This document shows positions 5,797-45,534 of a stretch of 64,000 nt of DNA, in pieces; the first letter of the stretch is position 1, and each line of letters begins with the position of its first letter. Origin of the DNA: an uncultured bacterium (lineage in GTDB: Bacteria; Fidelibacterota; Marinisomatia; SCGC-AAA003-L08; JACNLC01). The DNA lies in the NCBI GenBank assembly GCA_964527215.1, contig CAZGNZ010000001.1, forward strand, positions 129,276 to 193,275, written 5' to 3'. The notes below the pieces were generated by a model. That model was not told the DNA's origin. It saw only the letters and a list, made by a program, of their open reading frames with translations, and made no database searches. The translations under genes were made by a program, and so were the position numbers.

Positions 5797-7857
5797 ATGA
5801 TTTCATTTTCAGTACAGGGCAGCCTTTCTGTTTTTATTCTGCTTACAATTTTGTCCGTATACCTTATCTACCGCTATCATTTTGCTGTGAAAGCAAAACC
5901 GTTGGTTTTGCGAATATTTATGATCACAATCCGTTTTCTTGTAATGCTGACATCCTTGCTGCTCGTTCTAAATCTGATGATACACTGGTGGGGAAAACAC
6001 CCGGAAAACCCGGCTGTTGCCATGTATATCGACCAGTCCCTCAGCATGAACTCCATGGTACCCGATACGGATGATTTTTCAGAAAAAATCGAAGCACTGA
6101 AAAACCGAATTTCAGAATTCACTGATATCCTTGATATAAAAGGGTTTGACCAAACTGTATCCACAGTTGATGACGGCAGTGGTTTGTTCTTTGATGGTGA
6201 ACAGACGCGGTTTCAGCCTGTCATGGATGATATCAGGGAAAATCATTATCATCACAGTTTCATTGTTTCTGACGGTATCATTTCTGCCGGACCGGAAATA
6301 AAAGCACTGAAGTGGCCCGGACAGCAGACAATCCATACCATTGGTGTGGGTCAGCAGCGCAGCGATGCTGATTTCTGGATAAATGACGTTGTCCATCCCA
6401 ATTCCATTGTTGAGGGAGATTCTGTTGACCTGGTGATCAGTGCCGGATTTATGACAGAGGATGAGTATCGTTCAGAATTACAGGTGAAATCCGGCGGCAG
6501 AGTGGTGTACAGCCAGCCGTTGGATTTTAGTACCGGCAATGGATATCGTGAATTAGAGGTTCGGATTCCAAGTGACAAGCTGGATGAGCATCTGTCCGTT
6601 GAACTGGTATCAGCCGTCGAAGATGCGCGTCCGGAAAATGATGAGTATCATTTCCAGATTGATCTGCTGTCGCGAAAAGAGAATGTCCTTTTTATCACTG
6701 GCCTCCTCTCTGATAATACTCATTTTATTAAATCGGTTTTATCAAAACTTCCGCGAATTGACCTTTCCGTGCATTACAGGGTCAATACCCAGCAGTGGAA
6801 TGAACATCCGTCTGTCGGACTGGCAAAAAATCCCCGTCTGATTGTACTGGATAATTTCCCGGGTACCCCGGCAGACCGCACGTTTTTGACTGAAATAACC
6901 GATTACTGTGAAATAAACCAGATTCCGCTGCAGTATTTTGAAGGTCCTGCAGGGTCCGGTATTACTGCGGGATTGTTTGGGGCCGAGTTTGGATACCAGC
7001 TGGCAAGCCGGCCAAAAAAAACACTTATTAATATCGAGAGAAGTCTGCAGACATCAGGATTTGTCAGTTTTCGGGACCTGGAATTGATCCCACCTCAGAA
7101 AACGAACCACAAATGGGTGGTTCCGCGGTCCGATGTTCTGCTTGGATTTTCCGATGATTCCCCGGTTCTGGTCAGAAACACACGCCGGTTCCCGCTGACT
7201 GCGCTGTTCATGCCGGAACTGGCCCGGACCCATTTGAAAATCCAGCCATCGCCCCAGGCTCTGCTCCTTGAAAACCTGATTCACAACCTTTTGCTTTCCG
7301 ATTTTGTAAATGACGGCGGTCTGGTAAGATTATCAACAGACAGGACCAACTATTATCCGGGAGACGTGATTCAGGTAACGGCGGAAGTAAACAGAGCGGT
7401 TCAATCCCGGCCGACCCACATGCGTCTACTGGTGCTGGATGAATCAGGTCAGCAGATCGACAGTGTTGCGATGGAACCTGTGATAGGCACCCGGCAGTTT
7501 GCAACACATCTGCCTGCCGACGGAACCGGTCAGTGGAAGCTGAAATCAGAAATTCACTGGGACAGCGGTGAAACAGAACAGTCAGAAATCAAGACCGTCA
7601 CCATGCAGACCGTTCATCTGGAAGAAAAAATACTGACACCGGATTTTGACGGTCTGGCGCAGATTTCCCAAATGACTGGAGGGATGTACCGTCATATTGA
7701 GCAATTGGATTCTCTGCTGGACAATATTAAACTTACAGCTGTGCAGAATCCGTTTGATAATCGCTTCAGCGGACTGGATGTTCTGCCGTATCTGTGGATT
7801 TTAATTTTGCTGCTGACCATTGAGTGGATTATCAGAAAACGGGCCGGCCTGCTCTAG
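5797..7857 (+). CDS. Large membrane protein of unknown function (N-terminal double-TM segment, vWA-like DxSxS motif, C-terminal TM anchor)
   Basis: Two N-terminal hydrophobic helices are followed by VAMYIDQSLSMN (MIDAS-like DxSxS). There is a C-terminal helix, VLPYLWILILLLTIEWII. No confident family assignment is possible by eye. Confidence 0.45.
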   Translation: MISFSVQGSLSVFILLTILSVYLIYRYHFAVKAKPLVLRIFMITIRFLVMLTSLLLVLNLMIHWWGKHPENPAVAMYIDQSLSMNSMVPDTDDFSEKIEALKNRISEFTDILDIKGFDQTVSTVDDGSGLFFDGEQTRFQPVMDDIRENHYHHSFIVSDGIISAGPEIKALKWPGQQTIHTIGVGQQRSDADFWINDVVHPNSIVEGDSVDLVISAGFMTEDEYRSELQVKSGGRVVYSQPLDFSTGNGYRELEVRIPSDKLDEHLSVELVSAVEDARPENDEYHFQIDLLSRKENVLFITGLLSDNTHFIKSVLSKLPRIDLSVHYRVNTQQWNEHPSVGLAKNPRLIVLDNFPGTPADRTFLTEITDYCEINQIPLQYFEGPAGSGITAGLFGAEFGYQLASRPKKTLINIERSLQTSGFVSFRDLELIPPQKTNHKWVVPRSDVLLGFSDDSPVLVRNTRRFPLTALFMPELARTHLKIQPSPQALLLENLIHNLLLSDFVNDGGLVRLSTDRTNYYPGDVIQVTAEVNRAVQSRPTHMRLLVLDESGQQIDSVAMEPVIGTRQFATHLPADGTGQWKLKSEIHWDSGETEQSEIKTVTMQTVHLEEKILTPDFDGLAQISQMTGGMYRHIEQLDSLLDNIKLTAVQNPFDNRFSGLDVLPYLWILILLLTIEWIIRKRAGLL

Positions 7858-14749: not shown

Positions 14750-15991
14750 TTGTATTCGATTGCCTATATCTGTCTTTTTTCAGTTGTATTTTTCGCATCC
14801 CGGAAGTTGACGGGGCATTATCTGTCTCCGCCTGCCCTGATAACACTGCAATGGACCTTTTTTCTGGTTTTTGCCCTGGCCGCAGGATTCCGGTATATTG
14901 AAGACGGCATGGAACTTATCCTGCTGTTTACGGTGTTTTTTCTGCTTGGTTTTTATACCCTCAAATACCCCGACAAAGTACTGGATGTCCGTATATCCAT
15001 TCAGCAGTCCCGGTTTTTCAGCCTGCTTCTGCTGAGTCAGATTGTCTCACTTACCGGTGCATTTCTGTATCTGAAAACCATTATTGAAGCAGTAGGATCA
15101 ATTCAGACGATGTTCATCATCGGAGGGATTGTCCGCGAAAATATCCAGTTGGGGGAGATAGACATCCCGCTTATGATTCGAGTACTGAGCTATTTTGTAT
15201 TTCCCAATCTGATTCTGTCATTTCTTTACTTTTTTCTCTACAGACGAAAATATTTCATCTGGCTGACAGCGCTCAACATCTTAATCATCACTTTTGCAAT
15301 GATGGGACGTTTCTATCTGCTCCTCGGCATGTTATTTTCTTTCTGGTGCTGGTATTTTGGAATCAGTATGTTTCAAAACCGGAAACTTCGAAGCGTGGAT
15401 GTAAAAATCCTGAAAATTATACCTGTCGTTCTGCTGGCCGTATTTATCAGTTTTGCCGGTATTGAACGCATTCGAATCGGTGAACAGTATGAAATTCGGG
15501 ATTATGTCACACTGATCGACAAGATTCCCGTATATACATCCGGACAGATTTCTGCCCTGGGATATTTTAACACTCATTATCAAAACGAAGACCTGCTGTG
15601 GGGACAAATGATGTTCAGCGGAATATTTGATCTGTTGAAAATAGCAGATCGTCCGCCTGGTCTGTATCGGGATTTCATTATTGTTTCAGATCGCGGTGAT
15701 GAAGGAAATGTTTTTACAGGTTTCCGAGTGTTTATGGATGATTTCAGCTATCCGGGGTTTTTCCTGATATCATATCTTATCGGCTTATTCTGCTCAGTGT
15801 GCTACTATAAGATAACGCGGGAAAGACGGTTTTTCTTTTATCTGAACTCGTCCTATTTTTTTACATTTCTTGTCTGGTTGTTTGTTACCAGTATTACAAT
15901 ATACAACTCAATGATTTTTGGTCTGTTTTATCTGAATCTGTTTGTCTGGTTTCTGCGACCGGAAGCCGAATACAGTAATCATGCATCCTGA
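14750..15991 (+). CDS. Polytopic membrane protein, putative O-antigen/oligosaccharide repeat-unit polymerase (Wzy-like)
   Basis: A 413-aa aromatic-rich polytopic membrane protein with a larger loop region, located between wzz and the glycosyltransferases. It has a TTG start. The assignment rests on context and topology only. Confidence 0.45.
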   Translation: MYSIAYICLFSVVFFASRKLTGHYLSPPALITLQWTFFLVFALAAGFRYIEDGMELILLFTVFFLLGFYTLKYPDKVLDVRISIQQSRFFSLLLLSQIVSLTGAFLYLKTIIEAVGSIQTMFIIGGIVRENIQLGEIDIPLMIRVLSYFVFPNLILSFLYFFLYRRKYFIWLTALNILIITFAMMGRFYLLLGMLFSFWCWYFGISMFQNRKLRSVDVKILKIIPVVLLAVFISFAGIERIRIGEQYEIRDYVTLIDKIPVYTSGQISALGYFNTHYQNEDLLWGQMMFSGIFDLLKIADRPPGLYRDFIIVSDRGDEGNVFTGFRVFMDDFSYPGFFLISYLIGLFCSVCYYKITRERRFFFYLNSSYFFTFLVWLFVTSITIYNSMIFGLFYLNLFVWFLRPEAEYSNHAS

Positions 15992-17190
15992 TGTGGCACA
16001 AGGCTAAAAGTATCATCACTTTACTGGGCTCGGGAGTGTTTGCCACAATCGGGCTGGTACTTATTGCCTCCAACCGCTGGAGCATTCTCAGTGCTGAGGA
16101 TGTTGTCTTTATTCTGTTGTTTTTCCAATGGCAGGTATGGGGACTGACCATATGCAAGATGGGCACTGATCAAACAGTTTTCGCTCTTGTGACATCAAAG
16201 CCGGGATGCACTTTGGGTCTCGGGCGGTTTATGGCTTTGAGAAGTATTCCGCTTGTCCTGGGATTCACGTTGTTAATGGCAGTTGTGTTTAACGGATTGG
16301 TGGCAGCTATAGCCGGTCTGTCAATACTGTTGGATGTGGCTGCTTCCATCATGAGTTCAGAGTTGAATGCGCATCAGAAATTCAGAATCACGGCAACGGC
16401 CAATCTTCTGAACTATCCGTTGTTTTTTCTGCTGCTGCTGGTCTTCTCTTTTTGGATGTCTCTGGATCGCAATCTCACACTGCTGCTTTTTTTATCATCA
16501 AGCATCATTCGGTTTGTGTGGCTTGCCGGATTCCACAGAAAGACCCGCGGCAATGAGGTAATAGTGTCGCAGATCGTATTGGAAATGGGATTGCAGCAGG
16601 CAATGAATTATCTCCTCTTCCGGTTCGATTTGATTATCATCAGTGTCTCTCTTAAACTGGGGGAAATGGGGATGTCCGATCACATTGCAAATCAATATCT
16701 GTATCTGGCAAAATATCCGGAACTGATATCAAAAGCGGTGATGTATGCCGGATTTGTTCTGTTTCCGGTATTGTTTATCCAAAAGCCGATTCGACGGAAA
16801 ATTCAAAAGGTTCGTATCAACAGACAGTTACTGGTTCTTGCCGGGTACTGTCTCGCCGTTCTGGCAGGAAGCATGCTCTACATTTTTCTGTGGAATCAGC
16901 CAGAGGAACTGAACCGATCCTGGATAATTCCTTTTGCTGTCCATGGCCTGTTTGTAATGCCGGTGAATCTGCTGACATACTCCATGCTGAGACAGGGACA
17001 CATACGGCGTATCAACCGGAATCTTGTTATCAGTCTGACGTTGGCAGCTTTGCTGACTGTCGGCATGTTTTTTACACGATCCACCACCCTGCTGCTCTGG
17101 CTGGTACCTGTTCAATTGGGAATATTCACTCTGCAGGGATTGTTTTGCAGCTGGGGAAGCCCAAAATCCATTTATCGAAATGTAAATTGA
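15991..17190 (+). CDS. Polytopic membrane protein, second flippase-like (MOP-like) protein
   Basis: A 399-aa protein with about 10-12 TM segments. Its start overlaps the upstream stop as TGATG. The function is inferred from context only. Confidence 0.4.
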   Translation: MWHKAKSIITLLGSGVFATIGLVLIASNRWSILSAEDVVFILLFFQWQVWGLTICKMGTDQTVFALVTSKPGCTLGLGRFMALRSIPLVLGFTLLMAVVFNGLVAAIAGLSILLDVAASIMSSELNAHQKFRITATANLLNYPLFFLLLLVFSFWMSLDRNLTLLLFLSSSIIRFVWLAGFHRKTRGNEVIVSQIVLEMGLQQAMNYLLFRFDLIIISVSLKLGEMGMSDHIANQYLYLAKYPELISKAVMYAGFVLFPVLFIQKPIRRKIQKVRINRQLLVLAGYCLAVLAGSMLYIFLWNQPEELNRSWIIPFAVHGLFVMPVNLLTYSMLRQGHIRRINRNLVISLTLAALLTVGMFFTRSTTLLLWLVPVQLGIFTLQGLFCSWGSPKSIYRNVN

Positions 17191-17203: not shown

Positions 17204-18304
17204 ATGCCGGTCCTGAAGAAAATTCTATTTCTGCCCAAATATGCTCCTGCCGGCGCAAGTTCCAGGTATCGGACTTTTCAGTTTTTGGATCTTTTCCGTC
17301 AACAGGGAATCCATGCAGATGCTGTACCCTTTTTCAGTGACAGTTATGTAAAACATCTCTATTTTCATGAGCCCCTGAAGAAGATACTGAAGCTTCCGTG
17401 GTACTATCTGAGACGCATCGATAATGTTTTGAGAGCGGGAAAATATGATCTGGTTTTTATCGAAAAGGAACTGATACCCTATTTCCCAGGAATTCTTGAA
17501 CAGTATCTGTACAGGAGAAATATCCCTTACATACTTGATTATGACGATGCAGTATTTCATCATTATGATCAGAGCAGGGGATTGGGACGATTGTTTGCCG
17601 GGAAAATTCCGCGTATTCTCAGTAAAGCGAACGGTGTGATTGCTGGCAGTCCGTATCTGGCAGAGTATGCACAGCGATTTTCCGATAATGTCATTGAGAT
17701 ACCTACCGTAATCGATCTGCAGAAGTACCAATCACCAAAATCGGAATTTGGACAAACACCTGTGTTCGGCTGGCTGGGTTCTCCTTCCACCACTCATTAC
17801 ATCAACGGTTTAATTCCGCAAATATCAGAATTTCTTACCCGGTCCGGCAGCTGCATTCATCTAATAGGGTATGATTCATCTGCCTGGAAATGGGGACAGC
17901 AGGCCGCGATTCGAATTATTCCGTGGTCAGCAGAGGGTGAAATATCTGAAATAATGAAGTTGGATGTTGGATTGATGCCGCTGGATGATACACTCTGGTC
18001 AAAAGGAAAATGCGGATTTAAGCTGATTCAGTATATGGCATGCGGTTTACCGGTTATTGCTTCCGATATAGGTGTGAATCGTAAATTAATCGAACCTGGC
18101 CGGAACGGATTTCTGGTGAATACACGGAACGACTGGATTGAAGCGATGCAATACACCATGGAGCATAAAGGAAGATTGGCTGAAATGGGGCAGGAGGGTC
18201 GGAAAAAGGTCGAAGAGAAGTATAATCGCGATGCCGTATTTCCTGTGATGCTGGCGTTTTTGAAAAACTGTCTGAACAGGAAAGGACAGGTACGACACTT
18301 TTGA
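17204..18304 (+). CDS. Glycosyltransferase, GT4 (family 1-like)
   Basis: The C-terminal half carries the GT-B signature …LMPL…KGKCGFKLIQYMACGLPVIASDIGVNRKLIEPGRNGFL… (E-x7-E-like region). Confidence 0.8.
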   Translation: MPVLKKILFLPKYAPAGASSRYRTFQFLDLFRQQGIHADAVPFFSDSYVKHLYFHEPLKKILKLPWYYLRRIDNVLRAGKYDLVFIEKELIPYFPGILEQYLYRRNIPYILDYDDAVFHHYDQSRGLGRLFAGKIPRILSKANGVIAGSPYLAEYAQRFSDNVIEIPTVIDLQKYQSPKSEFGQTPVFGWLGSPSTTHYINGLIPQISEFLTRSGSCIHLIGYDSSAWKWGQQAAIRIIPWSAEGEISEIMKLDVGLMPLDDTLWSKGKCGFKLIQYMACGLPVIASDIGVNRKLIEPGRNGFLVNTRNDWIEAMQYTMEHKGRLAEMGQEGRKKVEEKYNRDAVFPVMLAFLKNCLNRKGQVRHF

Positions 18305-18318
18305 AATTAAAAACCAAA

Positions 18319-19449
18319 ATGAAAATCCTATTTGTTTCCAATACGTCCTGGTATCTTTTTAATTTTCGAAAACAACTGCTGAGCGAACTGGTTGAAATGG
18401 GAGTCGAGGTTCACGCTCTGGCTCCTTATGACCGGTATAGTGAAGGACTCAGGAAAATAGGTGTTTCTTATCATCATATCTCACTGTCGCGATCTGGAAT
18501 CAATCCGTTACTGGATGTTGTTTTTGCACTTCGTCTGCTTCGATTTTATTTTTCGCTGCGGCCGAATATTGTTCATCATTTCACCATAAAACCAGTCATT
18601 TTCGGCAGTATTACAGCTAATCTTTTTAAAAATATCAAAGTCGTGAATGCGATCCCGGGACTGGGGTATTCATTTAATCAAAAAGGCTTTATTCATAAGA
18701 TTGTGAAGCTGCTGTACAGAGTGGCAAACCGACCGGAAAGTCAGTATATATTCCAGAATCCTGATGATCAGGCATTGTTTCTGTCCAATCGATTCTGCTG
18801 CCCTGAGCAGTGTCACCTTATTCTCAGTTCCGGTGTTGATACGGAATGGTTCAAACCGGCCAATTCTTCCAGTCGAATGGTTCGGTTCGGACTGATGGGA
18901 CGAATGCTGAAAAGCAAGGGAGTTGAGTTGTATGTGGATGCAGCGAAGGCAGTGCATGATGCCGTTCCCAACACAATTTTCCAGATTTTGGGTGATCCCG
19001 ATGACGGACATCCGGACAGTGTATCCCGTGACTGGCTGGAATCGCTGTCCATAAATTATGATTATATTATCTGGGAACCTCATTTGGATGATGTGCGGCC
19101 CTTCTTTGGAAATATTGATATATTCGTACTGCCGACCTATTACCCGGAAGGCGTTCCCAGGTCTCTGACAGAAGCAGCAGCCTCCGGTCTGCCTCTGATT
19201 GCAACGGATACGCCGGGATGCAGAGAGATAATTTCTGACGGCTGCAATGGATACATGGTGCCGGTCAAAAATCTTGAACTGCTAACGGATCGTATGATGA
19301 AACTGGCTAGAGATACTGGGCTCAGGGCTGAAATGGGACAAGCCAGCCGAATGACCGCAAAGGAGAAATTCAGAGTTCAGGAAATCAATCGAATGACCCG
19401 GAATGTGTATCAGCTGCTCGGCTGCCGGGTCGACAGCCCTTCGGATTAG
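18319..19449 (+). CDS. Glycosyltransferase, GT4 (family 1-like)
   Basis: MKILFVSNTSWYLFNFR…VLPTYYPEGVPRSLTEAAASGLPLIATDTPGCREIISDGCNGYMV. I chose the ATG at 18319 over the track's TTG at 18301. Confidence 0.8.
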   Translation: MKILFVSNTSWYLFNFRKQLLSELVEMGVEVHALAPYDRYSEGLRKIGVSYHHISLSRSGINPLLDVVFALRLLRFYFSLRPNIVHHFTIKPVIFGSITANLFKNIKVVNAIPGLGYSFNQKGFIHKIVKLLYRVANRPESQYIFQNPDDQALFLSNRFCCPEQCHLILSSGVDTEWFKPANSSSRMVRFGLMGRMLKSKGVELYVDAAKAVHDAVPNTIFQILGDPDDGHPDSVSRDWLESLSINYDYIIWEPHLDDVRPFFGNIDIFVLPTYYPEGVPRSLTEAAASGLPLIATDTPGCREIISDGCNGYMVPVKNLELLTDRMMKLARDTGLRAEMGQASRMTAKEKFRVQEINRMTRNVYQLLGCRVDSPSD

Positions 19450-19549: not shown

Positions 19550-22500
19550 CCGTCTTCTGCCAACTGACCACTTTCCAGGTCCATTCAGCCGCGCCCTATT
19601 GGGAAGTCCAACTCAACGACTCAACCAGTCGATCACACCCCGCCAGCGAAACCCCGTTCTACTAAAATACTATTTCACCAAGTCCCCACGTCCACCCATC
19701 CCAAACCCCCACCCACCTCCGGGGAATACGCCATATGGCAGAGGCATTCAGGATGCAGCTATCCCCGTCCAACAGCAGACTTCTGCCGGAGAAAAAATGT
19801 ATTCGAGTACTCTCCTGTACTATTACTATGCGTTCTGAACGATAATTCGGACGGCAAACGTTGGTAAATGGGTAATAGCATCTTGGGAATTGGTCATCAC
19901 GGACTGCAATCCCGACTGACGGTTGACCACTTTCCAGGTCCACTCAGCTGCGCCCTATTGGGAAGTCCAACTCAACGACTCAACAGTCGATCACACCCCG
20001 CCAGCGAAACCCCATTCGACCATTATACCATTCTACGATTACACCAATATCCACCTCGACACCATCCGGTTAGGGCAGCCTTACTCAACGACTCAACCCT
20101 TACATCATTTTACCAAGTCCCCACATCCACCCATCCCAAACCCCCACCCACCTCCGGGGAATACGCCATATGGCAAGGATTCAGGATATAGCTATCCCCG
20201 TCCAACAGCAGACTTCTGCCGGAGAAAAAAATGTATTCGAGCACTCTTCTGTATTATTACTATGCATTCTGAACGATAATTCGGACGGAAATCGACCTGG
20301 AGTTGGAACAGGAAATCCGAAATTTGAAATTGGAAAGTCACAATCAAGGGCATACGACTGACAACTGACGACTTACCATTCCTGCAAAACAGTATAATGC
20401 CAGAAAGCCTAAATCAGCCACTTCACCATCTCACTACTCAACGACACCCAGCTGGGAAACCCGACTCGACTACTCAACCTGTTTCTATCCGTTGCACCCC
20501 TTCAGGGTTCTTCCGTAATTCTATCCGGTTCCCGGGGCGATGCCCCGGGCTGGCGTATTTCAGCCCCTTCAGGGCTGTGGATCTGGATTAACCAAATGGT
20601 CTGTGGAACCACAGATTGAAGATTTTTCTCGAGATTCCCCATCCCAAACCCCCACCCACCTCCGGGGAATACGCCATATGGCAAGAGTTCTGGATATAGC
20701 AATCCCAAGTCCAACAGCAGACTTCTGCCGGAGAAAAAAATGTATTTGAGCACTCTCCTGTATTATTACTATGCATTCTGAACGATAGTTCGGACGGAAA
20801 TCGTTGGTAAATGGGTAAAAGTATATTGGTCATTGGTCATCATGGACTGCAATCCCGACTGCCAACTGACGACTTTTCAAGTCCACTCAGACGCGCCCTA
20901 TTGGGTAGCCCAACTCAACAGCTCAAACAGTCGGTCGCACCCTGCCAGTGAAACCCCATTCGACCATAATACCATTACACGATTACACCAATATCCACCT
21001 CAACCACACCCAGCCAGAAAGACTTTCTCAACGACATAGCGACTCAAACAATCAACTAATGCACCATTATACTACTTCACCAAGTCCCCACGTTCACCCA
21101 TCCCAAACCCCCACCCACCTCCGGGGATTATGCCATTTGGCAGGGGCATTCAGGATGCAGCTATCCCCGTCCAACAGCAGACTTCTGCCGGAGAAAAAAT
21201 GTATTCGAGTACTCTCCTGTACTATTACTATGCGTTCTGAACGATAATTCGGACGGCAAACGTTGGTAAATGGGTAATAGCATCTTGGGAATTGGTCATC
21301 ACGGACTGCAATCCCGACTGACGGTTGACCACTTTCCAGGTCCACTCAGCTGCGCCCTATTGGGAAGTCCAACTCAACGACTCAACAGTCGATCACACCC
21401 CGCCAGCGAAACCCCATTCGACCATTATACCATTCTACGATTACACCAATATCCACCTCGACCACACCCAGCCAGAAAGACTTTCTCAACAACATAGCGA
21501 CTCAAACAATCAACTGATGCACCATTATACTATTTCACCAAGTCCCCACGTCCACCCATCCCAAACCCCCACCCACCTCCGGGGAATACGCCATATGGCA
21601 AGGATTCAGGATATAGCTATCCCCGTCCAACAGCAGACTTCTGCCGGAGAAAAAAAAGTATTCGAGTACTCTCCTGTACTATTACTATGCGTTCTGAACG
21701 ATAATTCGGACGGAAATCGACCTGGAGTTGGAACAGGAAATCCGAAATTTGAAATTGGAAAGTCACAATCAAGGGCATACGACTGACAACTGACGACTTA
21801 CCATTCCTGCAAAACAGTATAATGCCAGAAAGCCTAAATCAGCCACTTCACCATCTCACTACTCAACGACACCCAGCTGGGAAACCCGACTCGACTACTC
21901 AACCTGTTTCTATCCGTTGCACCCCTTCAGGGTTCTTCCGTAATTCTATCCGGTTCCCGGGGCGATGCCCCGGGCTGGCGTATTTCAGCCCCTTCAGGGC
22001 TGTGGATCTGGATTAACCAAATGGTCTGTGGAACCACAGATTGAAGATTTTTCTCGAGATTCCCCATCCCAAACCCCCACCCACCTCCGGGGAATACGCC
22101 ATATGGCAAGGATTCAGGATATAGCTATCCCCGTCCAACAGCAGACTTCTGCCGGAGAAAAAAATGTATTCGAGCACTCTTCTGTATTATTACTATGCAT
22201 TCTGAACGATAATTCGGACGAATATCGTTGGTAAATGGGTAATAGAATCTTGGTAATTGGTCATCACGGACTGCAATCCCGACTGACGACTGACCACTTT
22301 CCAGGTCCACTCACATGCGCCCTATTGGGAAGTCCAACTCAACAGCTCAACCAGTCGATCACACCCTGCCAGCGAAACCCCGTTCGACCATAATACCATT
22401 ACACGATTACACCAATATCCACCTCAACCACACCCAGCCAGAAAGACTTTCTCAACGACATAGCGACTCAAACAATCAACTAATGCACCATTATACTACT

Positions 22501-22765
22501 TCACCAAGTCCCCACGTTCACCCATCCCAAACCCCCACCCACCTCCGGGGATTATGCCATTTGGCAGGGGCATTCAGGATGCAGCTATCCCCGTCCAACA
22601 GCAGACTTCTGCCGGAGAAAAAAATGTATTTGAGCACTCTCCTGTATTATTACTATGCATTCTGAACGATAATTCGGACGGAAATCGTTGGTAAATGGGG
22701 AAAAGTATATTGGTCATTGGTTATCACGGACTGCAATCCCGACTGACGACTGACCACTGACCTAA
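19550..22765. repeat. Non-coding higher-order tandem repeat array of about 3.2 kb: seven units of about 435-507 bp with a super-period of about 1425 bp
   Basis: The conserved core (…CACCAAGTCCCCACGTCCACCCATCCCAAACCCCCACCCACCTCCGGGGAATACGCCATATGGCA…CCAACAGCAGACTTCTGCCGGAGAAAAAA…TTCTGAACGATAATTCGGACGG…GGACTGCAATCCCGACTGAC) recurs. Its C-tract anchors are at 19695, 20130, 20637, 21097, 21555, 22062 and 22521. Blocks 19861-20058 and 21263-21460, and 20285-20690 and 21715-22110, are essentially identical pairs. ORFs inside are low-complexity, and their frames are not conserved between copies. Confidence 0.9.
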
Positions 22766-22814: not shown

Positions 22815-24389
22815 ATGCAGATTTATCAAATCCTCATCATCCCGTTTTTGTTGACGATGATCCTGATGCCCGTGGGAGTTCGCTTCTTTCACTATTTGGA
22901 TATGCTGGATCATCCCGATACACGTAAAGTCCACGACCGGCCGGTTGCAAGCAGCGGCGGTATAATATTTTATATATCTTTTCTATTGTCTCTGCTCTAT
23001 TTCGTGGAGGTGGATACCGTCATCAAATCCTATCTGATGGGTGTTTCATTTCTCGTTGTTATCGGACTGGCAGATGATATCCGTCCATTATCACCTAACT
23101 ATAAATTTCTGGCCCAAATCGTGGCTGCATTCATTTTTTTGGCACTGACCAGACTCCATACAACGATTCCATATCTTGAACAATATCATACAATATCATT
23201 TCTGATCTGCCTGATATTTATTGTTGGCATCACCAATTCCATTAATCTTATAGATGGCCTGGACGGCCTTGCATCAGGAATTGCAATTATTGCTGCGGCC
23301 ACCCTGTCCCTGTTTTTCATCCAGTCCAGCTACTTCCCGGTGTTTCTGATTCTGATCGCGGTTGTATTCGGATTCCTGAGGGCAAATACATTCCCGGCCC
23401 TTATTTTCATGGGCGACAGCGGCAGTTACTTCCTGGGATATACCCTGGCCGTATTCAGCCTCGTTGGTGTCTCAGGTGAACTTGTTCCAGTCTGGCTGCC
23501 GTTTGTGATCCTGTTTATCCCCATTTTTGACACCTCATCTGTGTTCATTAAACGATTAGTAGAACATCGCCATATCTTCCTGCCTGATAAAAACCATATC
23601 CACCATCGAATTCAAGCAGCCGGCATATCTCATAAAAATACTGTGTTCCTGCTGTATTCATTTAAAATGGTCTTTGCCGTCAGTGCAATCCTACTTAGTA
23701 TTGGAAGTAATCGTTATCTATATATAACTATTGCACTTCTATTTTTGCTAACCTTTCAGCATATTCTGCTGATTCTTCGGGAAGATCTTAAAATCATCCA
23801 GCGACTGCATAATTCATTCTATCTGAATATTTTTTCCCGTTTCCCGATTTTACAAAGAGCATATGTATATTATTTTCTCCTGCTGCTCATAATCCTGTCG
23901 CTGATCTGTGTTTTTTCTGCCCGAATGATGGCACCGGTAGATATTGGACTGATATTCATCGCAATTGTAACGGCCTTTCTTTTTATTCTGGATAACAACG
24001 CCGGTCGCAGCACGAATGTGAGTATCGGCATGATCGTCCTTTCCGGCTTCATTCTGGTATTTTCTGATTTCTCAAAAATAATGATAGGACCTTGGCCGCT
24101 GAGTGATATCGTCTGGCTGCTCATGCTGACCGGAATACTGTTTTCATCCATGGGCATGTTTAAAACACGGCATTTTTTTGATTCTCCCACTGAATATCTC
24201 CTTACCATCGTGCTGCTGATATATTCCCTCAATCCCGATTCGATGGAGATCGCAGCCATCATGATAAGGCTGATTATCCTCTTTCTGGCCTATAAAATTC
24301 TGCTGCAGGATGAATATGTCAGGAGGAACAATGTGATATACGTGATAAATATTCTTACTCTGTGTCTAATGGTGCTGAACTATGTATAA
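22815..24389 (+). CDS. Undecaprenyl-phosphate sugar-1-phosphate transferase (WecA/MraY, GT4 polyprenyl-phosphate family) with an extra C-terminal membrane domain
   Basis: …HPDTRKVHDRPVASSGGI…NSINLIDGLDGLASG…IFMGDSGSYFLGY…HHIHHR… are canonical WecA/MraY-family motifs. Residues ~340-524 add further TM helices not needed for the core fold. Confidence 0.85.
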   Translation: MQIYQILIIPFLLTMILMPVGVRFFHYLDMLDHPDTRKVHDRPVASSGGIIFYISFLLSLLYFVEVDTVIKSYLMGVSFLVVIGLADDIRPLSPNYKFLAQIVAAFIFLALTRLHTTIPYLEQYHTISFLICLIFIVGITNSINLIDGLDGLASGIAIIAAATLSLFFIQSSYFPVFLILIAVVFGFLRANTFPALIFMGDSGSYFLGYTLAVFSLVGVSGELVPVWLPFVILFIPIFDTSSVFIKRLVEHRHIFLPDKNHIHHRIQAAGISHKNTVFLLYSFKMVFAVSAILLSIGSNRYLYITIALLFLLTFQHILLILREDLKIIQRLHNSFYLNIFSRFPILQRAYVYYFLLLLIILSLICVFSARMMAPVDIGLIFIAIVTAFLFILDNNAGRSTNVSIGMIVLSGFILVFSDFSKIMIGPWPLSDIVWLLMLTGILFSSMGMFKTRHFFDSPTEYLLTIVLLIYSLNPDSMEIAAIMIRLIILFLAYKILLQDEYVRRNNVIYVINILTLCLMVLNYV

Positions 24390-25965: not shown

Positions 25966-26105
25966 ATTGAATCCGCCATTTGGCGTGGCGGTGATATATA
26001 TCATGAACCGATCGATTACTGATACCTCACCCGTCAGCTGACGGGCGATGAAATTCATTGAAAATTCATTATCGTAACAGAGTTCTCATGAAATATTCGA
26101 GGTAG
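25966..26105 (+). repeat. REP-like hairpin element, copy 1
   Basis: AATCCGCCATTTGGCGTGGCGG (hairpin) …CCGATCGATTACTGATACC.CACCCGTCAGCTGACGGG (16-nt perfect palindrome) CG.(G)GAAATTCAT, followed by a …TCTCATGAAA… module. Homologous copies lie at 45284-45530 (inverted) and 54827-55091. Confidence 0.8.
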
Positions 26106-35619: not shown

Positions 35620-36786
35620 TTATTCCCGCCAGCCAGGCAGATCATCCGGATATTCAGCTTCGTCCGACTCGTGACAACCCTCGCAGGACGGCGGTTCACC
35701 AAAGTCTTCATCGATATGACAGTCTGAACAGTCCAGGTCTTCATGATCTTCGCTTAGAATAAGACCTGTAACCCCATGATCAAAGGATCCGGCCAGCCAG
35801 TGGATGTGACAGCTGGTACAGTTAACGGACGGTGAGGAAAAGTCCTTGACCGATCCATGGCAGCTTTCACAGGATACCCCGTCATGCCTTGGACTCAAAG
35901 GCCATCCGACTGAAACGGCGTGATCAAAAGCAGGCTTTTCTTCCATACTGTGGCAGAAGCCGCATTCCTGTTCAGAATTGCAGTTGGCGACGTGACATTT
36001 GCAGCAGCTGTTGCGGCACAACGCACAATCATCAACAGCCATGGTTTTCTCCGTGGGATTGATATGCTCCTCATGGCACTTCCGGCAGCCGTCCCCCTGA
36101 TGACAATCCACACACTGCAGACCGAACAGGTCAACATGATCTGTATGATGGAAAGTCACCACGGGCCCATCCTGGAGATGAGTGTGATAAATATATTTTT
36201 CTTCCGCGACGATTTTCGGATGATGAGTCATCCCCATAATATCCGATTTATCAACTGCAGCAGTTTTCCCGGAAGCATCGTCTGCAACTTCATGACAGAT
36301 ATTACACTCGGATTCATGGCTCCATTCACGGTGGCAGTTCAAACACTGCCGGTGGTAGGCGGCTTTCAGAGAAGGTTTCTGAATGCTGATGGAATCCCCT
36401 GTGGCATCATGGCATTCGCGGCACGGCGGTACCGGTTTATCCGGTTCCGAGAAGTGGTGGCATAACTCGCACCCACCGGACATATCCGACATTTCGGCAT
36501 GGAGTTTATGAGTAAAAAAGACGGGTTTGTACAGATTCGCAAGGTGATCCATGATAACTATTTCAGGTCCTTCGGTAATCTGATGCCGACCTTCAAAATG
36601 TCCCTCGTGGCGTGGACAATCAAGTAGGCAGGGATCTTCCTTCGTAGGCTGGTCACATACATGACATGTGGCACAATAGCGGTTCAGTGACTGTTTGTGG
36701 AAATCATCGTCGGTTCCGGCAGACCAAAGAAAACTGAGTACCGGAAGAAGCAGAGCTGCAGAGATTTTAATATTTGATTTACGCAT
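35620..36786 (-). CDS. Periplasmic multihaem cytochrome c, 13 CxxCH motifs (Hmc/Nhc-type partner of the FeS/NrfD module)
   Basis: It has a signal peptide (MRKSNIKISAALLLPVLSFLWSA). Hand-counted motifs are CATCH, CELCH, CRECH, CLNCH, CNICH, CVDCH, CRKCH, CCKCH, CGFCH, CESCH, CTSCH, CSDCH and CEGCH. The start overlaps the NrfD-like stop by 8 nt. Confidence 0.9.
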   Translation of the reverse strand: MRKSNIKISAALLLPVLSFLWSAGTDDDFHKQSLNRYCATCHVCDQPTKEDPCLLDCPRHEGHFEGRHQITEGPEIVIMDHLANLYKPVFFTHKLHAEMSDMSGGCELCHHFSEPDKPVPPCRECHDATGDSISIQKPSLKAAYHRQCLNCHREWSHESECNICHEVADDASGKTAAVDKSDIMGMTHHPKIVAEEKYIYHTHLQDGPVVTFHHTDHVDLFGLQCVDCHQGDGCRKCHEEHINPTEKTMAVDDCALCRNSCCKCHVANCNSEQECGFCHSMEEKPAFDHAVSVGWPLSPRHDGVSCESCHGSVKDFSSPSVNCTSCHIHWLAGSFDHGVTGLILSEDHEDLDCSDCHIDEDFGEPPSCEGCHESDEAEYPDDLPGWRE

Positions 36787-37993
36787 GTTTTTTGTGCTCC
36801 AATTCTTCTATCACTGGGAAATGAATGACAAAAAACCGGTATACCAGAATCAGCAGTGAAATGAATCCAACAGTGACCAGTATCTCGGTGATTGCAGGAA
36901 TATACCTGGACTCGGCATATGGGGGCTGATACCCGACGATGAATACATTGACCCGATTAAGGACCACACCAACTACGACTGCCGCAGCGCCGCTGAACAG
37001 CCAGATGATTTGTTTCCGAAATCTGCGGCTTGACAAAACCACAATGGGATATATCACGCCAATGAGCATCTCTGCATTGAAGAACCAGGACTCCACAGTT
37101 CCCTCAAGAACATAGTGAAAAGTCCCGCGGTTCACCATATCCAGAGTTTTGGCAAACAGATAAATCCACAGCAGCAGTGGCAGGTAACGGGCATACTGAC
37201 TTAAAATTGATATTTCCGGTTTCAATTTGAAAGACCATGATGCCAGCAGGGATTCAAAAATCACCATCGCGATTCCCACGGCAAAGGCGGACAGGAGAAA
37301 AAGGAGCGACAGAATGGGTGTGTGCCAGAGAGGGTGCAGTTTCGAAGGCACAATCACCATCAGCGTACCCAGCGAGCTTTGATGCATACAGGACAGCACC
37401 ACCCCCAAAATGATAAATATAAACATAGCCTTGCCGAATGTGTTGTCCAGGAATTTGAGCAGTCCTTCCGTGGCGTTATTCAGGCTCTTCATGATACCCG
37501 GAAGATTCACCCGTGATCGAAAGCGTTCAGTCAGAATGGGAATAAACTCAATATAAAGTACTGTCAGGTAACTGACAACACAGATGCCGACTTCAAACAA
37601 GGCTGAGTTGCCCTGCCACATTGAAGGAAGCAGAACATGCCATATCCAGTAGTAGCGACCGAGATCAATCACCACTCCCAAAGCCACAAAGGTATATCCC
37701 AGCATGGCAGTGAGCAGTGCCGGCCGGGTAAGTACCGCGTAGCGCTCGCGATGCATGATGTGGGCAATGAAGCTGGAGGTAAATCCACCGGCTGCAAGGG
37801 CCACACCGCAGGCCACATCAATCCCAATCCAGATACCCCACGGATACTGACCGTCAAGGTTCGTGGCAGCTTCAAGACTGAAAACAAAACGGTAGAATGC
37901 ACTGGCAAGCCCAAGGGCGGCCAGCGCAGTGAGAATCCAGACTCCAGGCGTAAAATAGGGGATACGTTTGACGGGGAGGACGGCAGTGGACAT
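36779..37993 (-). CDS. NrfD/PsrC-family integral membrane quinone-interacting subunit
   Basis: A 404-aa polytopic protein. …NLDGQYPWGIWIGIDVACGVALAAGGFTSSF… is the typical NrfD/HmcC/DsrP/ActC-type N-terminal signature. The ATG overlaps the FeS-subunit stop. Confidence 0.85.
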   Translation of the reverse strand: MSTAVLPVKRIPYFTPGVWILTALAALGLASAFYRFVFSLEAATNLDGQYPWGIWIGIDVACGVALAAGGFTSSFIAHIMHRERYAVLTRPALLTAMLGYTFVALGVVIDLGRYYWIWHVLLPSMWQGNSALFEVGICVVSYLTVLYIEFIPILTERFRSRVNLPGIMKSLNNATEGLLKFLDNTFGKAMFIFIILGVVLSCMHQSSLGTLMVIVPSKLHPLWHTPILSLLFLLSAFAVGIAMVIFESLLASWSFKLKPEISILSQYARYLPLLLWIYLFAKTLDMVNRGTFHYVLEGTVESWFFNAEMLIGVIYPIVVLSSRRFRKQIIWLFSGAAAVVVGVVLNRVNVFIVGYQPPYAESRYIPAITEILVTVGFISLLILVYRFFVIHFPVIEELEHKKHA

Positions 37994-38901
37994 TATTCTT
38001 CCTCCTTATTGTATAGTTTCATTGCCAGGCCCAGCAAACCGGCCAGAAGAATCGGTCCACTGAATCCTTTGAAAATACCATGCTGAATGGATTCAGTCAG
38101 GTGCGCGGGGCAGTCACTGGACAGTACCGGGAGGTCAACCTCCTCAAAGGGCACATTTGAGATGTACATCCAGCTGGTGCCGCCGACTTCATGTTCACCG
38201 TAAACATGATCCACATAGCGGTCCGGGTGTGTTCGAATACGTTCATGAGCGAGTTCAAGCAGCTCGCTCCTTTTTCCGAAAACCATCACTTCACGCGGGC
38301 AGATCGAAACGCAGGCCGGGAGTTCACCGGTTTCAATGCTCTGTTCAAAGCAAAGTCCGCATTTCATGACCTTGGGTGTCAGGGCATTGCTGTATTCATA
38401 CTGGGGAATTTGGAAGGGGCAGGCAACCATGCAGTAACGACAGCCGATACACTTGCTGGCGTCATATGTAACCGGCCCCTTCGGATTTTTTTCCAGAGCG
38501 CCTACAATACAGGCAGAAACACAAGCAGGATGCTCACAGTGCATGCACTGTACTTTTACATCCAGCGGGAAGCCGTCGATACCTTTTCCGGGATATCGGT
38601 TAACCACGGTGTACTGGTGGTCTGACGGCCGCCGAAATTCTTCCATAACAGAGGGATCGTCATACGAAGCAATGTCATCATGCGGCAGTCCATTGTTTTC
38701 TGCACATGCATATTCACATTTCCGACATCCGATACAAAGAGTCAGGTCAGACAGAACTCCTATCCTATCCGGATCAAGCATGGCATCATGCGTGGCCTTC
38801 TGGGCAGAAGTAATGTGCGTATTGGTGTGGGAAGGGACGGTGCTCGCTGCTGCAGTCCCGGATAAAAGTCCCACTGCCTTAAAGAATGATTTTCGATCCA
38901 T
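37993..38901 (-). CDS. Tat-exported 4Fe-4S ferredoxin-type subunit (NrfC/PsrB/HybA/HmcB-like) with a C-terminal TM anchor
   Basis: It has a Tat-like leader (MDRKSFFKAVGLLSGTAAAS, an RK variant). Cys clusters are CIGCRKCEYAC, CMHCEHPACVSAC, CIGCRYCMVACP and CGLC…CVSICP. The C-terminal helix is GPILLAGLLGLAMKL. Confidence 0.85.
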   Translation of the reverse strand: MDRKSFFKAVGLLSGTAAASTVPSHTNTHITSAQKATHDAMLDPDRIGVLSDLTLCIGCRKCEYACAENNGLPHDDIASYDDPSVMEEFRRPSDHQYTVVNRYPGKGIDGFPLDVKVQCMHCEHPACVSACIVGALEKNPKGPVTYDASKCIGCRYCMVACPFQIPQYEYSNALTPKVMKCGLCFEQSIETGELPACVSICPREVMVFGKRSELLELAHERIRTHPDRYVDHVYGEHEVGGTSWMYISNVPFEEVDLPVLSSDCPAHLTESIQHGIFKGFSGPILLAGLLGLAMKLYNKEEE

Positions 38902-38915
38902 GGTTGAATATTCCT

Positions 38916-40895
38916 TTACTTCCGGTTGTTTTCAGAAATATGTGACAGCTCTTTCATTTTCTTTAATTCGTTTTTTAAATCTCTTTCCATTTCTGCTTTG
39001 GCCTCTTCAACATAATCCGGATGCTCATGTGCATACATGTCTTCAGGCATCTTTCCGGTAAGCCATGACGGATTCATGGGATACACTTCCGGATTGAAAA
39101 CAGTCGAATAGAAATGCCAGATGGCAATAGCCAGTGTGGCAAGCCAGGCTTCCCAGTAGTGGACCACCAATGCCACATCCAGGACACCTTTCGGGAAAAA
39201 CTGAATAAAATAATTGTCAAACCACAGCAGCAGGCCGCTGACGATCATCACAACAGTACCCCAGACCAGCGCCCAGTATTCTGCTTTTTCAACGTAGCCG
39301 AATCTTTTAAACCGCGGAGATGTTTTTGACAGACCCAGATAAAATGCAATTCTGTGACCGAATTGAGTAAAATCAAGCAGTCTGGGCCACATATCCACAA
39401 GGAACTGGCGGCCGCGTCGGGTAAACAGAAAGATCGTGTGCCACAATACCGTTATAATAAACAGAACGGCAGCATAGCGATGGGCCAGACCGCGCATCTC
39501 AAATCCGCCTTCCCAACCGAAGAAGGTTTTTGCCATCCAGGACTCGCTGAAACGCAGTGAAAAACCGGTAATGACCAGTGCAATAAACGAAACCATTAAA
39601 AAAGTGTGCTGCCATACTTCATGCAGCTTCATTCGGCGAATTTGGGGTTTTTTGATGACAAGGCGAAGCTGGCGATACAGGTCCAGAATCCAGTGTATCA
39701 CCATAAAACCGATAATAATGACTATGGCAACGATATATATTTTTTCAACGATATCCGCCACGGTAGTCTGCAGACCTGTACCCGAAACACTGTGAATGGC
39801 AGTGCTGGCCAGTTTGGCCGAGATTCCGGGGTGACATTCACCACAGGTCGCTCTCAGATTGTTGGGGTGAACGGTTGAGCTGGGATCCGTGCTTGGCAGG
39901 ATTCGGTGGACGCCATGGCAGGATGCGCAGTTGGCTACATGCGTGTCGCCCGCCTTACTCTTTAATCCGTGATAAGAGTCAACAAAAGTATTCAGCCGTC
40001 CTGTCGGCAATCCGTATTTTTCATTAAGCCGGGTGGATTCATGGCAGGGAGAGCAGGTTGCTTCGGCAAGCCTTGCCGCGGATACGGGAGATCGGGGATC
40101 TGAGGGTGAAATAATGCCGTGTTCCCCGTGACAGTCCGTACAGACCGGGGCATCCGTTTCTCCTCTGTCAACCAGCTTACCGTGTATGCCGTCCATGAAA
40201 TCATTTTCGATTCCTCTATGACATTTTCCACAGGTCTGAGGAATATTGAAGTGATTTATTGCGGATTCAGGATGACCGGGTGAATAGATATGGTGCGAGC
40301 TGCCGCCTGAACTGTGACAGTCATCACAGGTTGCCGCGACATAAATCCCGCCTGTTGTGGCTTTTCCATGAACACTGTTGGAATACATTTCAACCGGATG
40401 CGACAAAAGCAGATCATACTGATTGATGAGGTCCAGGTTTTCGTGGCATCTTCCGCAGGTGGCGGGAAGATTGGTAGGATGCACCAGAGAATGCTTTATA
40501 TCCGGAGGCAGTACCTCGTGGGTGCCGTGGCAGTCAGCGCAGGAGGGGATATCTCCGCACTCCCCGACAATTTCACGTCCGTGAGCCTGATACTCTTCGG
40601 ACTGGTCATCATGGCAGGTTCGGCAGCCCTCACAGCCGACATCCAGATAGGCCTCTTCATGAGGGTAATACTCCTTATCCTGGTGACAGTCCTGACACTC
40701 AAGATCTTCATGGATGGAATGCGAAAGATCGTCTTGAATAACTGTCCCGTGAATTCCCGTTTCGTGACAGTCGCTGCATGAATCCGAATCAATTTCTTCA
40801 GCCTCTTCGCCAGCTGCCGGAAAAGCGAAACAGCCTAAAATGAGAGAAAAAAAGATCAGTAAACGGTGTGTATCGATTTGTTTGAGCAAGTGCAT
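38916..40895 (-). CDS. Fusion protein: 11-haem cytochrome c (periplasmic) plus C-terminal membrane b-type cytochrome domain (CbcL-like)
   Basis: It has a signal peptide and 11 CxxCH motifs (CSDCH…CGECH). These are followed by 4-5 TM helices with conserved His (…EVWQHTFLMVSFIALVITGFSLRF…AHRYAAVLFIITVLWHTIFLF…VHYWEAWLATLAIAIWHFY…). That region resembles the FdnI/HydC (Ni/Fe-hydrogenase b-type cytochrome) family. Confidence 0.85.
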   Translation of the reverse strand: MHLLKQIDTHRLLIFFSLILGCFAFPAAGEEAEEIDSDSCSDCHETGIHGTVIQDDLSHSIHEDLECQDCHQDKEYYPHEEAYLDVGCEGCRTCHDDQSEEYQAHGREIVGECGDIPSCADCHGTHEVLPPDIKHSLVHPTNLPATCGRCHENLDLINQYDLLLSHPVEMYSNSVHGKATTGGIYVAATCDDCHSSGGSSHHIYSPGHPESAINHFNIPQTCGKCHRGIENDFMDGIHGKLVDRGETDAPVCTDCHGEHGIISPSDPRSPVSAARLAEATCSPCHESTRLNEKYGLPTGRLNTFVDSYHGLKSKAGDTHVANCASCHGVHRILPSTDPSSTVHPNNLRATCGECHPGISAKLASTAIHSVSGTGLQTTVADIVEKIYIVAIVIIIGFMVIHWILDLYRQLRLVIKKPQIRRMKLHEVWQHTFLMVSFIALVITGFSLRFSESWMAKTFFGWEGGFEMRGLAHRYAAVLFIITVLWHTIFLFTRRGRQFLVDMWPRLLDFTQFGHRIAFYLGLSKTSPRFKRFGYVEKAEYWALVWGTVVMIVSGLLLWFDNYFIQFFPKGVLDVALVVHYWEAWLATLAIAIWHFYSTVFNPEVYPMNPSWLTGKMPEDMYAHEHPDYVEEAKAEMERDLKNELKKMKELSHISENNRK

Positions 40896-40920
40896 GGTTT
40901 TTCCTTCATGATTGTTGATT

Positions 40921-41385: not shown

Positions 41386-41404
41386 CAACAATAAACTATA
41401 AAGT

Positions 41405-41426
41405 ATCTATATTTTAGGATATAGAT
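41405..41426 (-). promoter_or_regulatory. Perfect inverted repeat ATCTATAT-N6-ATATAGAT in the AT-rich region just upstream of the MerR/cytochrome operon (candidate operator)
   Basis: The palindrome is seen directly in the sequence, 20-41 nt upstream of the MerR start. MerR-family operators are typically dyads inside the promoter spacer. No -35/-10 assignment was possible by eye. Confidence 0.3.
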
Positions 41427-41545
41427 ATATTAAGATCATAATGTACAAATATAAAAGAAAATATGTCCTCTTTAATGAACATTGTTCAAAAAAAACCTGG
41501 CAGTCCTGATTGATTGTTCATGCCGAATAAAAACCGCTGAAAATG

Positions 41546-45530: not shown

Positions 45531-45534
45531 ACCA

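Follow-up and report, generated by a model that had tools for sequence, protein, structure and literature searches.

What does a 3.2-kb array of long tandem repeats without a credible gene do in the middle of a bacterial polysaccharide locus? The array in question occupies positions 19557 to 22758 of a 64,000-nucleotide (nt) window, i.e., the whole stretch of DNA analyzed here, which belongs to contig CAZGNZ010000001.1 of an uncultured bacterium of the Marinisomatia (assembly GCA_964527215.1). Kilobase-scale noncoding arrays with higher-order repeats are rare in bacterial chromosomes. An earlier note on this DNA had placed the array inside a polysaccharide operon, directly before the gene of the initiating transferase, and had proposed as candidate roles a Rho-dependent attenuator or insulator, an array of structured RNAs or of protein-binding sites, or a recombination-prone copy-number switch; the location, in a same-strand cluster, was confirmed. 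We tentatively favor, at somewhat less than even confidence, a reading in which a leader segment has been amplified into a recombinationally active array whose untranslated C-rich transcript would load Rho and so form a barrier that uncouples wecA-wzi from the genes before it. The structural history (amplification, exchange of one tail for another, a second duplication involving a block of three units, and ongoing conversion) is well supported by the sequence; we infer + strand transcription, Rho loading, polarity, and any role of copy number.

Organization of the array

The array comprises six full units flanked by two partial ones, arranged head to tail as follows.

19557 to 22758, + strand: whole tandem array, made of partial U0, six full units U1 to U6, and partial U7
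19695 to 20129, + strand: U1, 435 bp, X-type tail with a 23-bp deletion
20130 to 20637, + strand: U2, 508 bp, Y-type tail, with ~50% identity to the X tail
20638 to 21096, + strand: U3, 459 bp, X-type
21097 to 21554, + strand: U4, 458 bp, X-type, opening the second three-unit super-repeat
21555 to 22062, + strand: U5, 508 bp, Y-type, with ATG changed to AAG at the start of the mini-open reading frame (mini-ORF)
22063 to 22520, + strand: U6, 458 bp, X-type
22521 to 22758, + strand: U7, partial, with the head and the first part of an X tail, followed by 56 bp of unique sequence before wecA

Tandem Repeats Finder returned a period of 458 with 4.5 copies across 20638 to 22758, and a repeat search of the window located a 69-nt anchor at seven positions (19695, 20130, 20638, 21097, 21555, 22063, and 22521). 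The resulting spacings of 435, 508, 459, 458, 508, and 458 bp are within 1 bp of those in the earlier note (435, 507, 460, 458, 507, and 459), whose arrangement of seven units in a three-unit super-repeat of ~1425 bp was upheld by anchor search and alignment: U1 to U3 and U4 to U6 are 94.5% identical overall. Exact repeats within the array span 158 to 419 nt, among them repeats of 419, 318, and 241 nt at offsets of 1425, 1402, and 1424. Two pairs of stretches had been quoted as nearly identical. The first (19861 to 20058 versus 21263 to 21460) matches at 198 of 198 positions; the second (20285 to 20690 versus 21715 to 22110) is 97.5% identical as quoted, with coordinates 10 nt out of register, and the true exact repeat measures 419 nt at offset 1425.

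All seven units share two blocks, of 31 and 38 nt, in which no position varies, and the 26- to 29-nt blocks CCCAAACCCCCACCCACCTCCGGGGA and CCAACAGCAGACTTCTGCCGGAGAAAAAA each occur exactly seven times without mismatch (0 expected in shuffles). Both ends of the array are in the same phase, at the short shared sequence ...CTGaCnACTGACCACT (also written ...CTGACNACTGACCACT), the hallmark left when a preexisting spacer segment is duplicated in tandem. In all, 3365 bp without a credible gene lie between the stop codon of a glycosyltransferase gene (19449) and the start codon of the WecA-type gene (22815), and the head-to-tail repetition at a single locus is like that of a bacterial minisatellite or variable-number tandem repeat (VNTR).

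Alignment of the units resolved each into a conserved head of ~165 nt, 90 to 99% identical between units, and one of two tails. The X tail (~290 nt) occurs in U1, U3, U4, and U6 and in the partial units at both array ends, with pairwise differences of 16 to 23%; the Y tail (~345 nt), confined to U2 and U5, is at ~50% identity effectively unrelated to it. Within the tails, a 37-nt submotif, CTCAACGACACCCAGCTGGGAAACCCGACTCGACTAC and its variants, was found at ten sites between 19584 and 22459. It consists of a small palindrome with ACTCAAC-like words on either side, and its recurrence at a spacing of ~112 nt gives the tails an older periodicity of their own.

Different segments of the units group differently. 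The 5′ part of the head (first 72 nt) is identical in U2, U5, and U6 and also in U4 and U7, the mini-ORF segment pairs U1 with U4 (U5 differs at one site), U2 with U6, and U3 with U7, and the tails follow a third pattern. Because the groupings of the 5′ head and the mini-ORF disagree, exchange junctions fall in the invariant mid-head block (alignment columns 73 to 110), and the mosaic units point to evolution by repeated unequal crossing-over or conversion rather than by one duplication. Mosaicism and the long exact repeats thus bear out the recombination-prone character that had been attributed to the array. Together with the two tail types, the Shine-Dalgarno (SD) sequence, the mini-ORF, and the Y-unit hairpins described below, the mosaic units are features beyond those of the earlier note. 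In the history that the sequence supports, the spacer that joins the variable glycosyltransferase genes to the conserved wecA-wzi pair held a ~460-bp noncoding segment, which was amplified head to tail; one unit gained a different tail, and a three-unit block was then duplicated again. Unequal crossing-over or gene conversion keeps the array partly homogenized, with junctions inside the conserved head.

Composition of the array and its potential as a Rho barrier

On the + strand, the whole array contains 30.5% C and 18.3% G, compared with 23.3% C and 24.3% G in the window overall. The 38 to 48% C and 12 to 15% G counted previously hold for the C-rich stretches and not for the array mean. Windows of 78 nt with a C/G ratio above 2 make up 40% of the array and 1.1% of the rest of the window on this strand. 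Each X unit has one 78-nt tract with a C/G ratio of 7 to 11, running from the end of the tail into the next head (peaks near 19643, 20078, 21045, 21503, and 22469); Y units reach 3.8. The strongest tract is located as follows.

21420 to 21580, + strand: peak C-rich, G-poor tract of a unit, running from tail B into the next head

YC dinucleotides (Y, pyrimidine) have a frequency of 0.177 on the + strand of the array, 0.111 on its − strand, and 0.119 (range, 0.105 to 0.147) on the sense strand of twelve flanking genes. The C>G bias is opposite to that of the neighboring genes and common to both unrelated tail types, which hints that composition itself is maintained and suggests that it was selected rather than derived from a common ancestor of the tails.

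C-rich, G-poor, untranslated, and weakly folded RNA is a substrate of Rho in Escherichia coli and other bacteria. As in Rho utilization (rut) regions, at least ~80 nt of C-rich, G-poor, YC-rich sequence is present here, in a predicted RNA that is poorly structured (folding z about 0) and has only a 13-codon open reading frame (ORF) per unit. It is this compositional part of the proposed Rho-dependent attenuator or insulator that stood: the array is C rich, G poor, YC rich, folded no more than shuffles, and essentially untranslated. Transcription from left to right would produce 3.2 kb of such weakly structured RNA, in which every X-type unit would offer Rho one very strong C>G tract to load on. 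The array would then have a polar effect, whether as insulator or as attenuator, and would separate wecA-wzi from the upstream genes; these two genes would rely on a promoter located within the last unit or immediately behind it, and the number of units could drift freely or serve to tune read-through. Placed before the initiating transferase, the array could control, or at least disrupt, the coupling of the two halves of the locus.

Several observations weigh against this reading. One rut-like tract would suffice for a Rho barrier, which leaves the seven units unexplained. The conserved part of the unit is the head, which holds the SD sequence, the mini-ORF, and hairpins, and not the C-rich bulk. 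In the most diverged X pair, U1 and U3, differences affect 14 of 158 head positions and 54 of 275 tail positions (91% identity in the head versus 77 to 84% in the tails; Fisher p = 0.0026). This conservation hints at a head function other than bulk C-richness, and localized gene conversion could also explain it. Moreover, the two terminator-like hairpins of the Y units could end transcription independently of Rho, and no promoter for wecA was found by a sigma-70-type scan.

Since the Rho barrier accounts neither for seven units nor for the conservation of the head, a neutral satellite is nearly as likely. The array would then be a functionless macrosatellite, a spacer expanded by slippage or unequal crossing-over at the seam of the locus and tolerated there, with wecA-wzi served by their own promoter and the head kept by conversion. 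We regard this as somewhat unlikely but a close competitor. The mosaic units and long exact repeats are what active homogenization would leave, and neither covariation nor excess structure nor a coding signal was detected. Against neutrality, X tails that differ by 16 to 23% imply an array old enough to have been lost if costly, its strand-specific C>G bias is strong, opposite to the neighbors, and common to unrelated tails, and two blocks have stayed invariant in all seven units. A Rho barrier, or an array tunable by copy number, would mean a new regulation of glycan synthesis in a poorly known phylum; a neutral array would be a clean bacterial example of satellite-like evolution through amplification, tail replacement, block re-duplication, and conversion.

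Reality of the repeat and its distribution

Long near-identical repeats are error-prone in assembly. Logan short-read contigs from other sequencing runs carry the flanking proteins with identical sequence. Among the runs in which this organism is present are SRR31802798, SRR24302413, and SRR29008691. Those with the upstream glycosyltransferase all end at 19620, apart from one that ends at 19595, and those with wecA all start at 22729. The breaks coincide with 30-mers (k − 1) that are shared with an inner unit; for example, 22729 to 22758 equals 22269 to 22298. The de Bruijn graphs of about 20 runs (one contig, L001, alone represents 16 of them) branch as the array predicts. Branching at both edges in independent short-read graphs shows that the repeat was not invented by one assembly, and the array is therefore real in several sequencing runs; the breaks rule out invention by a single assembly without proving the number of seven units. 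Such arrays are systematically lost from short-read metagenome-assembled genomes (MAGs), as the break of every short-read contig at the array edges illustrates, and this one shows what long reads reveal and short reads miss. The contig that ends early (L005; run SRR29008691) stops 25 nt before L004 (19620), at a 30-mer found nowhere else in the window, which may reflect strain heterogeneity in the first unit or a drop in coverage.

A mobile origin was not supported. The array contains no inverted repeats of at least 20 nt, no integrase or transposase is encoded nearby, and comparison by blastn with the rest of the window and all fetched loci returned only the array's own flanks. A 20-mer of the C-rich core had one chance match among GTDB genomes, in a Dormibacterota MAG without flanking similarity; the core had no match in IMG/VR, a 23-mer of the second invariant block none in JGI metagenomes, and the super-repeat none among phages and plasmids (blastn). 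Nothing similar was thus recovered from Rfam or from genomes and metagenomes, which the earlier note had suggested as a check, or from viral, phage, and plasmid collections. Lacking inverted repeats and any other copy in the window or the public collections searched, a miniature inverted-repeat transposable element (MITE) or insertion sequence (IS) was rejected.

A repeat-protein gene or pseudogene was likewise discarded. The + strand frames are stop-poor, as a decayed gene might leave them. The longest ORF reaches 153 amino acids (aa), frames shift between copies, and substitutions between units show no 3-nt periodicity. Pfam searches of ten array ORFs yielded nothing meaningful (none at an E value of 0.01 or better), a six-frame concatenate of one super-repeat (2991 aa) found no match at E ≤ 1e−3 among 5.8 billion proteins, and two array ORFs had no exact record in an assembly index. 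The previous statement that the array holds no credible ORF and changes frame between copies is therefore sustained. Similarly, a short ORF in tail A (MGKSILVIGHHG...) was considered as a remnant of an epimerase gene of relatives and rejected, its N terminus not being similar. An assembly artifact, a decayed gene, or a mobile element (MITE/IS or integron cassettes) taken together is very improbable, and none of the findings that the earlier note had named as grounds for dismissing the array (assembly artifact, known IS or MITE, and gene family) applied.

The array is confined to one lineage among the collections searched, as a neutral macrosatellite would be. The nearest named relatives are Candidatus Marinimicrobia or MAGs of the Fibrobacteres-Chlorobi-Bacteroidetes (FCB) group, with WecA identities of 52% or less and seryl-tRNA synthetase (SerRS) identities of 66 to 67%; the closest sequences in the collections are only 70 to 71% identical, and no sister species (SerRS >85% identical) was present there. 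At four syntenic Marinimicrobia MAG loci, 122 bp of AT-rich DNA separates the glycosyltransferase gene from wecA, and that these relatives manage with so short a spacer also favors neutrality. A 70%-identical relative has a divergent upstream gene and a spacer of 424 bp that shows no similarity. The short or dissimilar spacers of relatives identify the array as an insertion or expansion specific to this lineage.

The conserved head, the mini-ORF, and RNA structure

Beyond its contribution to bulk composition, the head carries features reminiscent of a small gene.

22063 to 22093, + strand: invariant C-rich block CCCATCCCAAACCCCCACCCACCTCCGGGGA (U6 copy), identical at 19695, 20130, 20638, 21097, 21555, and 22521
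22098 to 22152, + strand: three short palindromes or hairpins per head (U6 copy), GCCATATGGC, GGATATAGCTATCC, and GCAGACTTCTGC
22154 to 22205, + strand: GGAG, A-run, and 13-codon mini-ORF MYSSTLLYYYYAF with its stop (U6 copy)
19797 to 19838, 20231 to 20272, 20740 to 20781, 21199 to 21240, 21656 to 21697 (AAG, no start), and 22624 to 22665, + strand: other copies of the mini-ORF

The palindrome GCCATATGGC occurs five times in the array and its variant GCCATTTGGC twice, in agreement with the 10-bp palindrome or variant, accompanied by an A-run, that had been described for each unit. The invariant C-rich block, predicted to be unpaired by folding of the head, includes CACCTCC, which is the same as the anti-SD core of 16S rRNA. 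GGAG, an A-run of 5 to 6 nt, and ATG with 13 codons are found in six of the seven units; U5 has AAG in place of ATG, and U3 and U7 encode the peptide variant S3L.

These features raise the alternative of an array of small genes, in which each head would make a C-rich RNA with unpaired CCCACCUCC (an anti-SD mimic) and/or the peptide MYSSTLLYYYYAF. The RNA would bind G-rich or SD regions, and repetition of the units would raise dosage, as in the NsiR1 small RNA (sRNA) array of Nostoc. Apart from the recurrence of the mini-ORF and the invariance of the unpaired block, this alternative is favored by the use of GGAG/GGAGG SD sequences by some genes of the window and by the spectrum of variable sites in the mini-ORF: four of six are synonymous third positions, with one nonsynonymous site and one loss of the start codon. 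This excess is not significant (P = 0.10), U5 has lost its start codon, and degenerate back-translation of the peptide, allowing any synonymous codons, gave no match in JGI metagenomes or IMG/VR. A stem of GGAGA with TCTCC could possibly sequester the SD sequence of the mini-ORF. The alternative terminator and antiterminator hairpins that a leader-peptide attenuator would have were not found over the mini-ORF, and X units have no terminator after it.

The sigma-70-type scan found no promoter in the heads and 3 sites in the region versus 5.1 expected in shuffles, with a consensus that may not be that of the host phylum. Hairpins resembling terminators are restricted to the Y units.

20531 to 20634 (repeated at 21956 to 22059), + strand: hairpin cluster at the end of the Y tail, with a two-hairpin Acido-Lenti-1 match below threshold

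Within it, a terminator-like hairpin at 20597 to 20618 is followed by AAGATTTTTC, in the long Y units U2 and U5 only. A perfect TATAAT was also noted in each Y tail (20389 to 20394 and 21814 to 21819), ~200 nt upstream of this hairpin and with no matching −35 hexamer; the two elements could possibly delimit a transcription unit of ~230 nt. Although this arrangement in the Y units would suit an array of small genes, the heads lack a promoter-like site and the five X-type units lack a terminator, so that the succession of promoter, sRNA, and terminator in every repeat, as in NsiR1, is not what we found.

Structure predictions did not add to the case. Scanning of all 4227 Rfam families, ribozymes included, gave no match at gathering score anywhere in the window; the best one in the array, RF01687 (Acido-Lenti-1), scored 28 bits versus a gathering score of 37, in Y tails only. 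ARAGORN identified no tRNA or tmRNA. Folding z scores relative to shuffles were −0.49 (+ strand) and +0.57 (− strand) for the unit, −1.12 and −0.21 for the head, and +0.40 for the Y tail. RNAalifold on the seven heads found 0 compensatory changes in 32 predicted pairs, from copies too similar for a strong test. The unit is thus no recognized RNA family, as had been stated, and the proposed array of structured RNAs was not supported by Rfam thresholds, by z scores of −1.1 to +0.6, or by the suggested check for covariation, of which there was none among the seven heads. With this absence of structural covariation added to the other objections, an array of small genes appears improbable.

Quadruplex motifs and copy number

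Read on the − strand, the invariant C-rich block contains GGGTGGGGGTTTGGGATGGG, a canonical G-quadruplex (G4) motif (four runs of G3+ separated by N1-7), present once per unit. Seven of the nine G4 or i-motif patterns of the 64-kb window fall in the array, all of them predicted by pattern as motifs only. This concentration, with a G4 motif on the template strand of each head, would agree with a copy-number (phase or dosage) switch, in which recombination between units, possibly triggered by G4 structures, would shift wecA-wzi expression and thereby the amount of surface glycan between cells. The 158- to 419-nt exact repeats and the mosaic units also favor such a switch, and the two different break points at the left edge may reflect heterogeneity of this kind. 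Known phase-variation repeats, however, measure 1 to 10 nt and lie in promoters or ORFs, unlike 460-bp units at 0.3 to 3 kb from a start codon, and we consider such a switch improbable, slightly more so than an array of small genes.

More doubtful still is a combination of these ideas. The head could be an expressed module that unites an anti-SD-bearing C-rich RNA, a Tyr-rich micropeptide of 13 residues, and a recombination-promoting G4 on the template strand, with the array as a self-resizing dosage device for the initiating transferase and hence for surface glycan. If this were true, the array would be a functional bacterial satellite with a higher-order repeat structure.

The polysaccharide locus and its surroundings

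The genes that flank the array are the following.

18301 to 19449, + strand: glycosyltransferase of the GT1 family, last gene of the variable part of the cluster
22815 to 24389, + strand: WecA-type polyprenyl-phosphate sugar-1-phosphate transferase, PF00953, 524 aa
24382 to 25932, + strand: Wzi-like capsule assembly protein, whose gene shares 8 nt with wecA

Upstream, the cluster comprises rmlB, rmlA, and rmlC, a Wza-like exporter, Wzx, Wzz, two unassigned ORFs of membrane-protein size, and two glycosyltransferases; the array is followed by the wecA-like gene, wzi, and serS, and all genes of the cluster are on the + strand, with small gaps between them or small overlaps. Marinimicrobia and FCB-group MAGs share the order wecA-wzi-serS-acyltransferase-DUF2851-SLT/LysM-S49-xseA. 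The array lies at the seam where the variable part of the polysaccharide locus meets the conserved part. Relatives have a gene for an NAD-dependent epimerase between wecA and wzi (locus L008, 11563 to 12534), which is absent in the window. Two ORFs of the cluster without a Pfam match (14750 to 15991, 413 aa, and 15991 to 17190, 399 aa) may encode a Wzy-like polymerase or other membrane proteins; a 686-aa ORF at 5797 to 7857 also has no Pfam match.

A second, dispersed repeat of ~92 to 95 nt, resembling repetitive extragenic palindromes (REP) or MITEs, occupies intergenic positions at 25970 to 26061, 45280 to 45371 (inverted), 54827 to 54921, and 55034 to 55091. Its copies are 77 to 91% identical and contain the palindromes GCCATTTGGC and CCCGTCAGCTGACGGG. 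Short-read contigs break within it as well (L001 ends near 26040, and L012 and L013 start near 26014). The 10-mer GCCATTTGGC is common to this repeat and to array units U4 and U7, which may be due to chance. Two of the copies lie in a 1.5-kb region (53825 to 55346) without an ORF of 150 aa or more. Elsewhere in the window, the − strand of 35620 to 48095 harbors a cluster of large multiheme cytochromes with cytochrome c7/c3 and MtrC/MtrF-like domains and a fused cytochrome b561; one of them combines a dockerin domain with a C-terminal sorting domain of the type IX secretion system (T9SS). The cluster suggests extracellular electron transfer in a Marinimicrobia-like organism.

Comparison with known systems

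Tandem noncoding repeats between bacterial genes are already known, as VNTRs, mycobacterial interspersed repetitive units (MIRUs), and the NsiR1 array (Ionescu et al. 2010, J Mol Biol 398:177, cited in PMC9045159). The array described here shares with VNTRs and MIRUs the head-to-tail arrangement, the noncoding nature, the position within a same-strand cluster, unequal recombination, and a small ORF. It departs from MIRUs, which are 40 to 100 bp long, in its ~460-bp unit, its three-unit higher-order repeat, and its two tail types; it also resides at a single locus without dispersed copies, and its mini-ORF does not overlap the flanking stop or start codons.

The NsiR1 repeat of Nostoc/Anabaena reportedly consists of a short unit with its own promoter, an sRNA of ~60 nt, and a terminator. 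In the array, by contrast, no promoter was found, terminator-like hairpins are present in two of seven units, and no structural conservation was seen. The Y-type tails resemble RF01687 Acido-Lenti-1 in having two adjacent GC-rich hairpins and a GGCU...UAU linker, and they differ from its members in their score below the gathering threshold and in their restriction to those same two units.

With alpha satellite, CEB1, and the Neisseria pilE G4, the array has in common a multiunit periodicity, local conversion, and a canonical G4 motif per unit. Unlike eukaryotic satellites, it is found on a bacterial chromosome, has no more than seven units, and is enclosed by a gene cluster, and its G4 is known by motif alone.

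Closest to the Rho barrier that we favor are rut regions and the Rho-dependent attenuators of tna, mgtA, and rho, which likewise precede a gene and, on the sense strand, are untranslated, C rich, G poor, YC rich, and weakly structured. Those of tna and mgtA also have a short leader ORF nearby. Known rut regions measure ~80 to 150 nt and are single copy, whereas the array presents a rut-like tract about every 460 nt over 3.2 kb; the likeness is read from sequence, and the specificity of Rho in the FCB group may differ. Collectively, with its 460-bp unit, its higher-order repeat, and its two tail types at the seam of a polysaccharide locus, the array is an unusual variant of known tandem repeats and not a new category.

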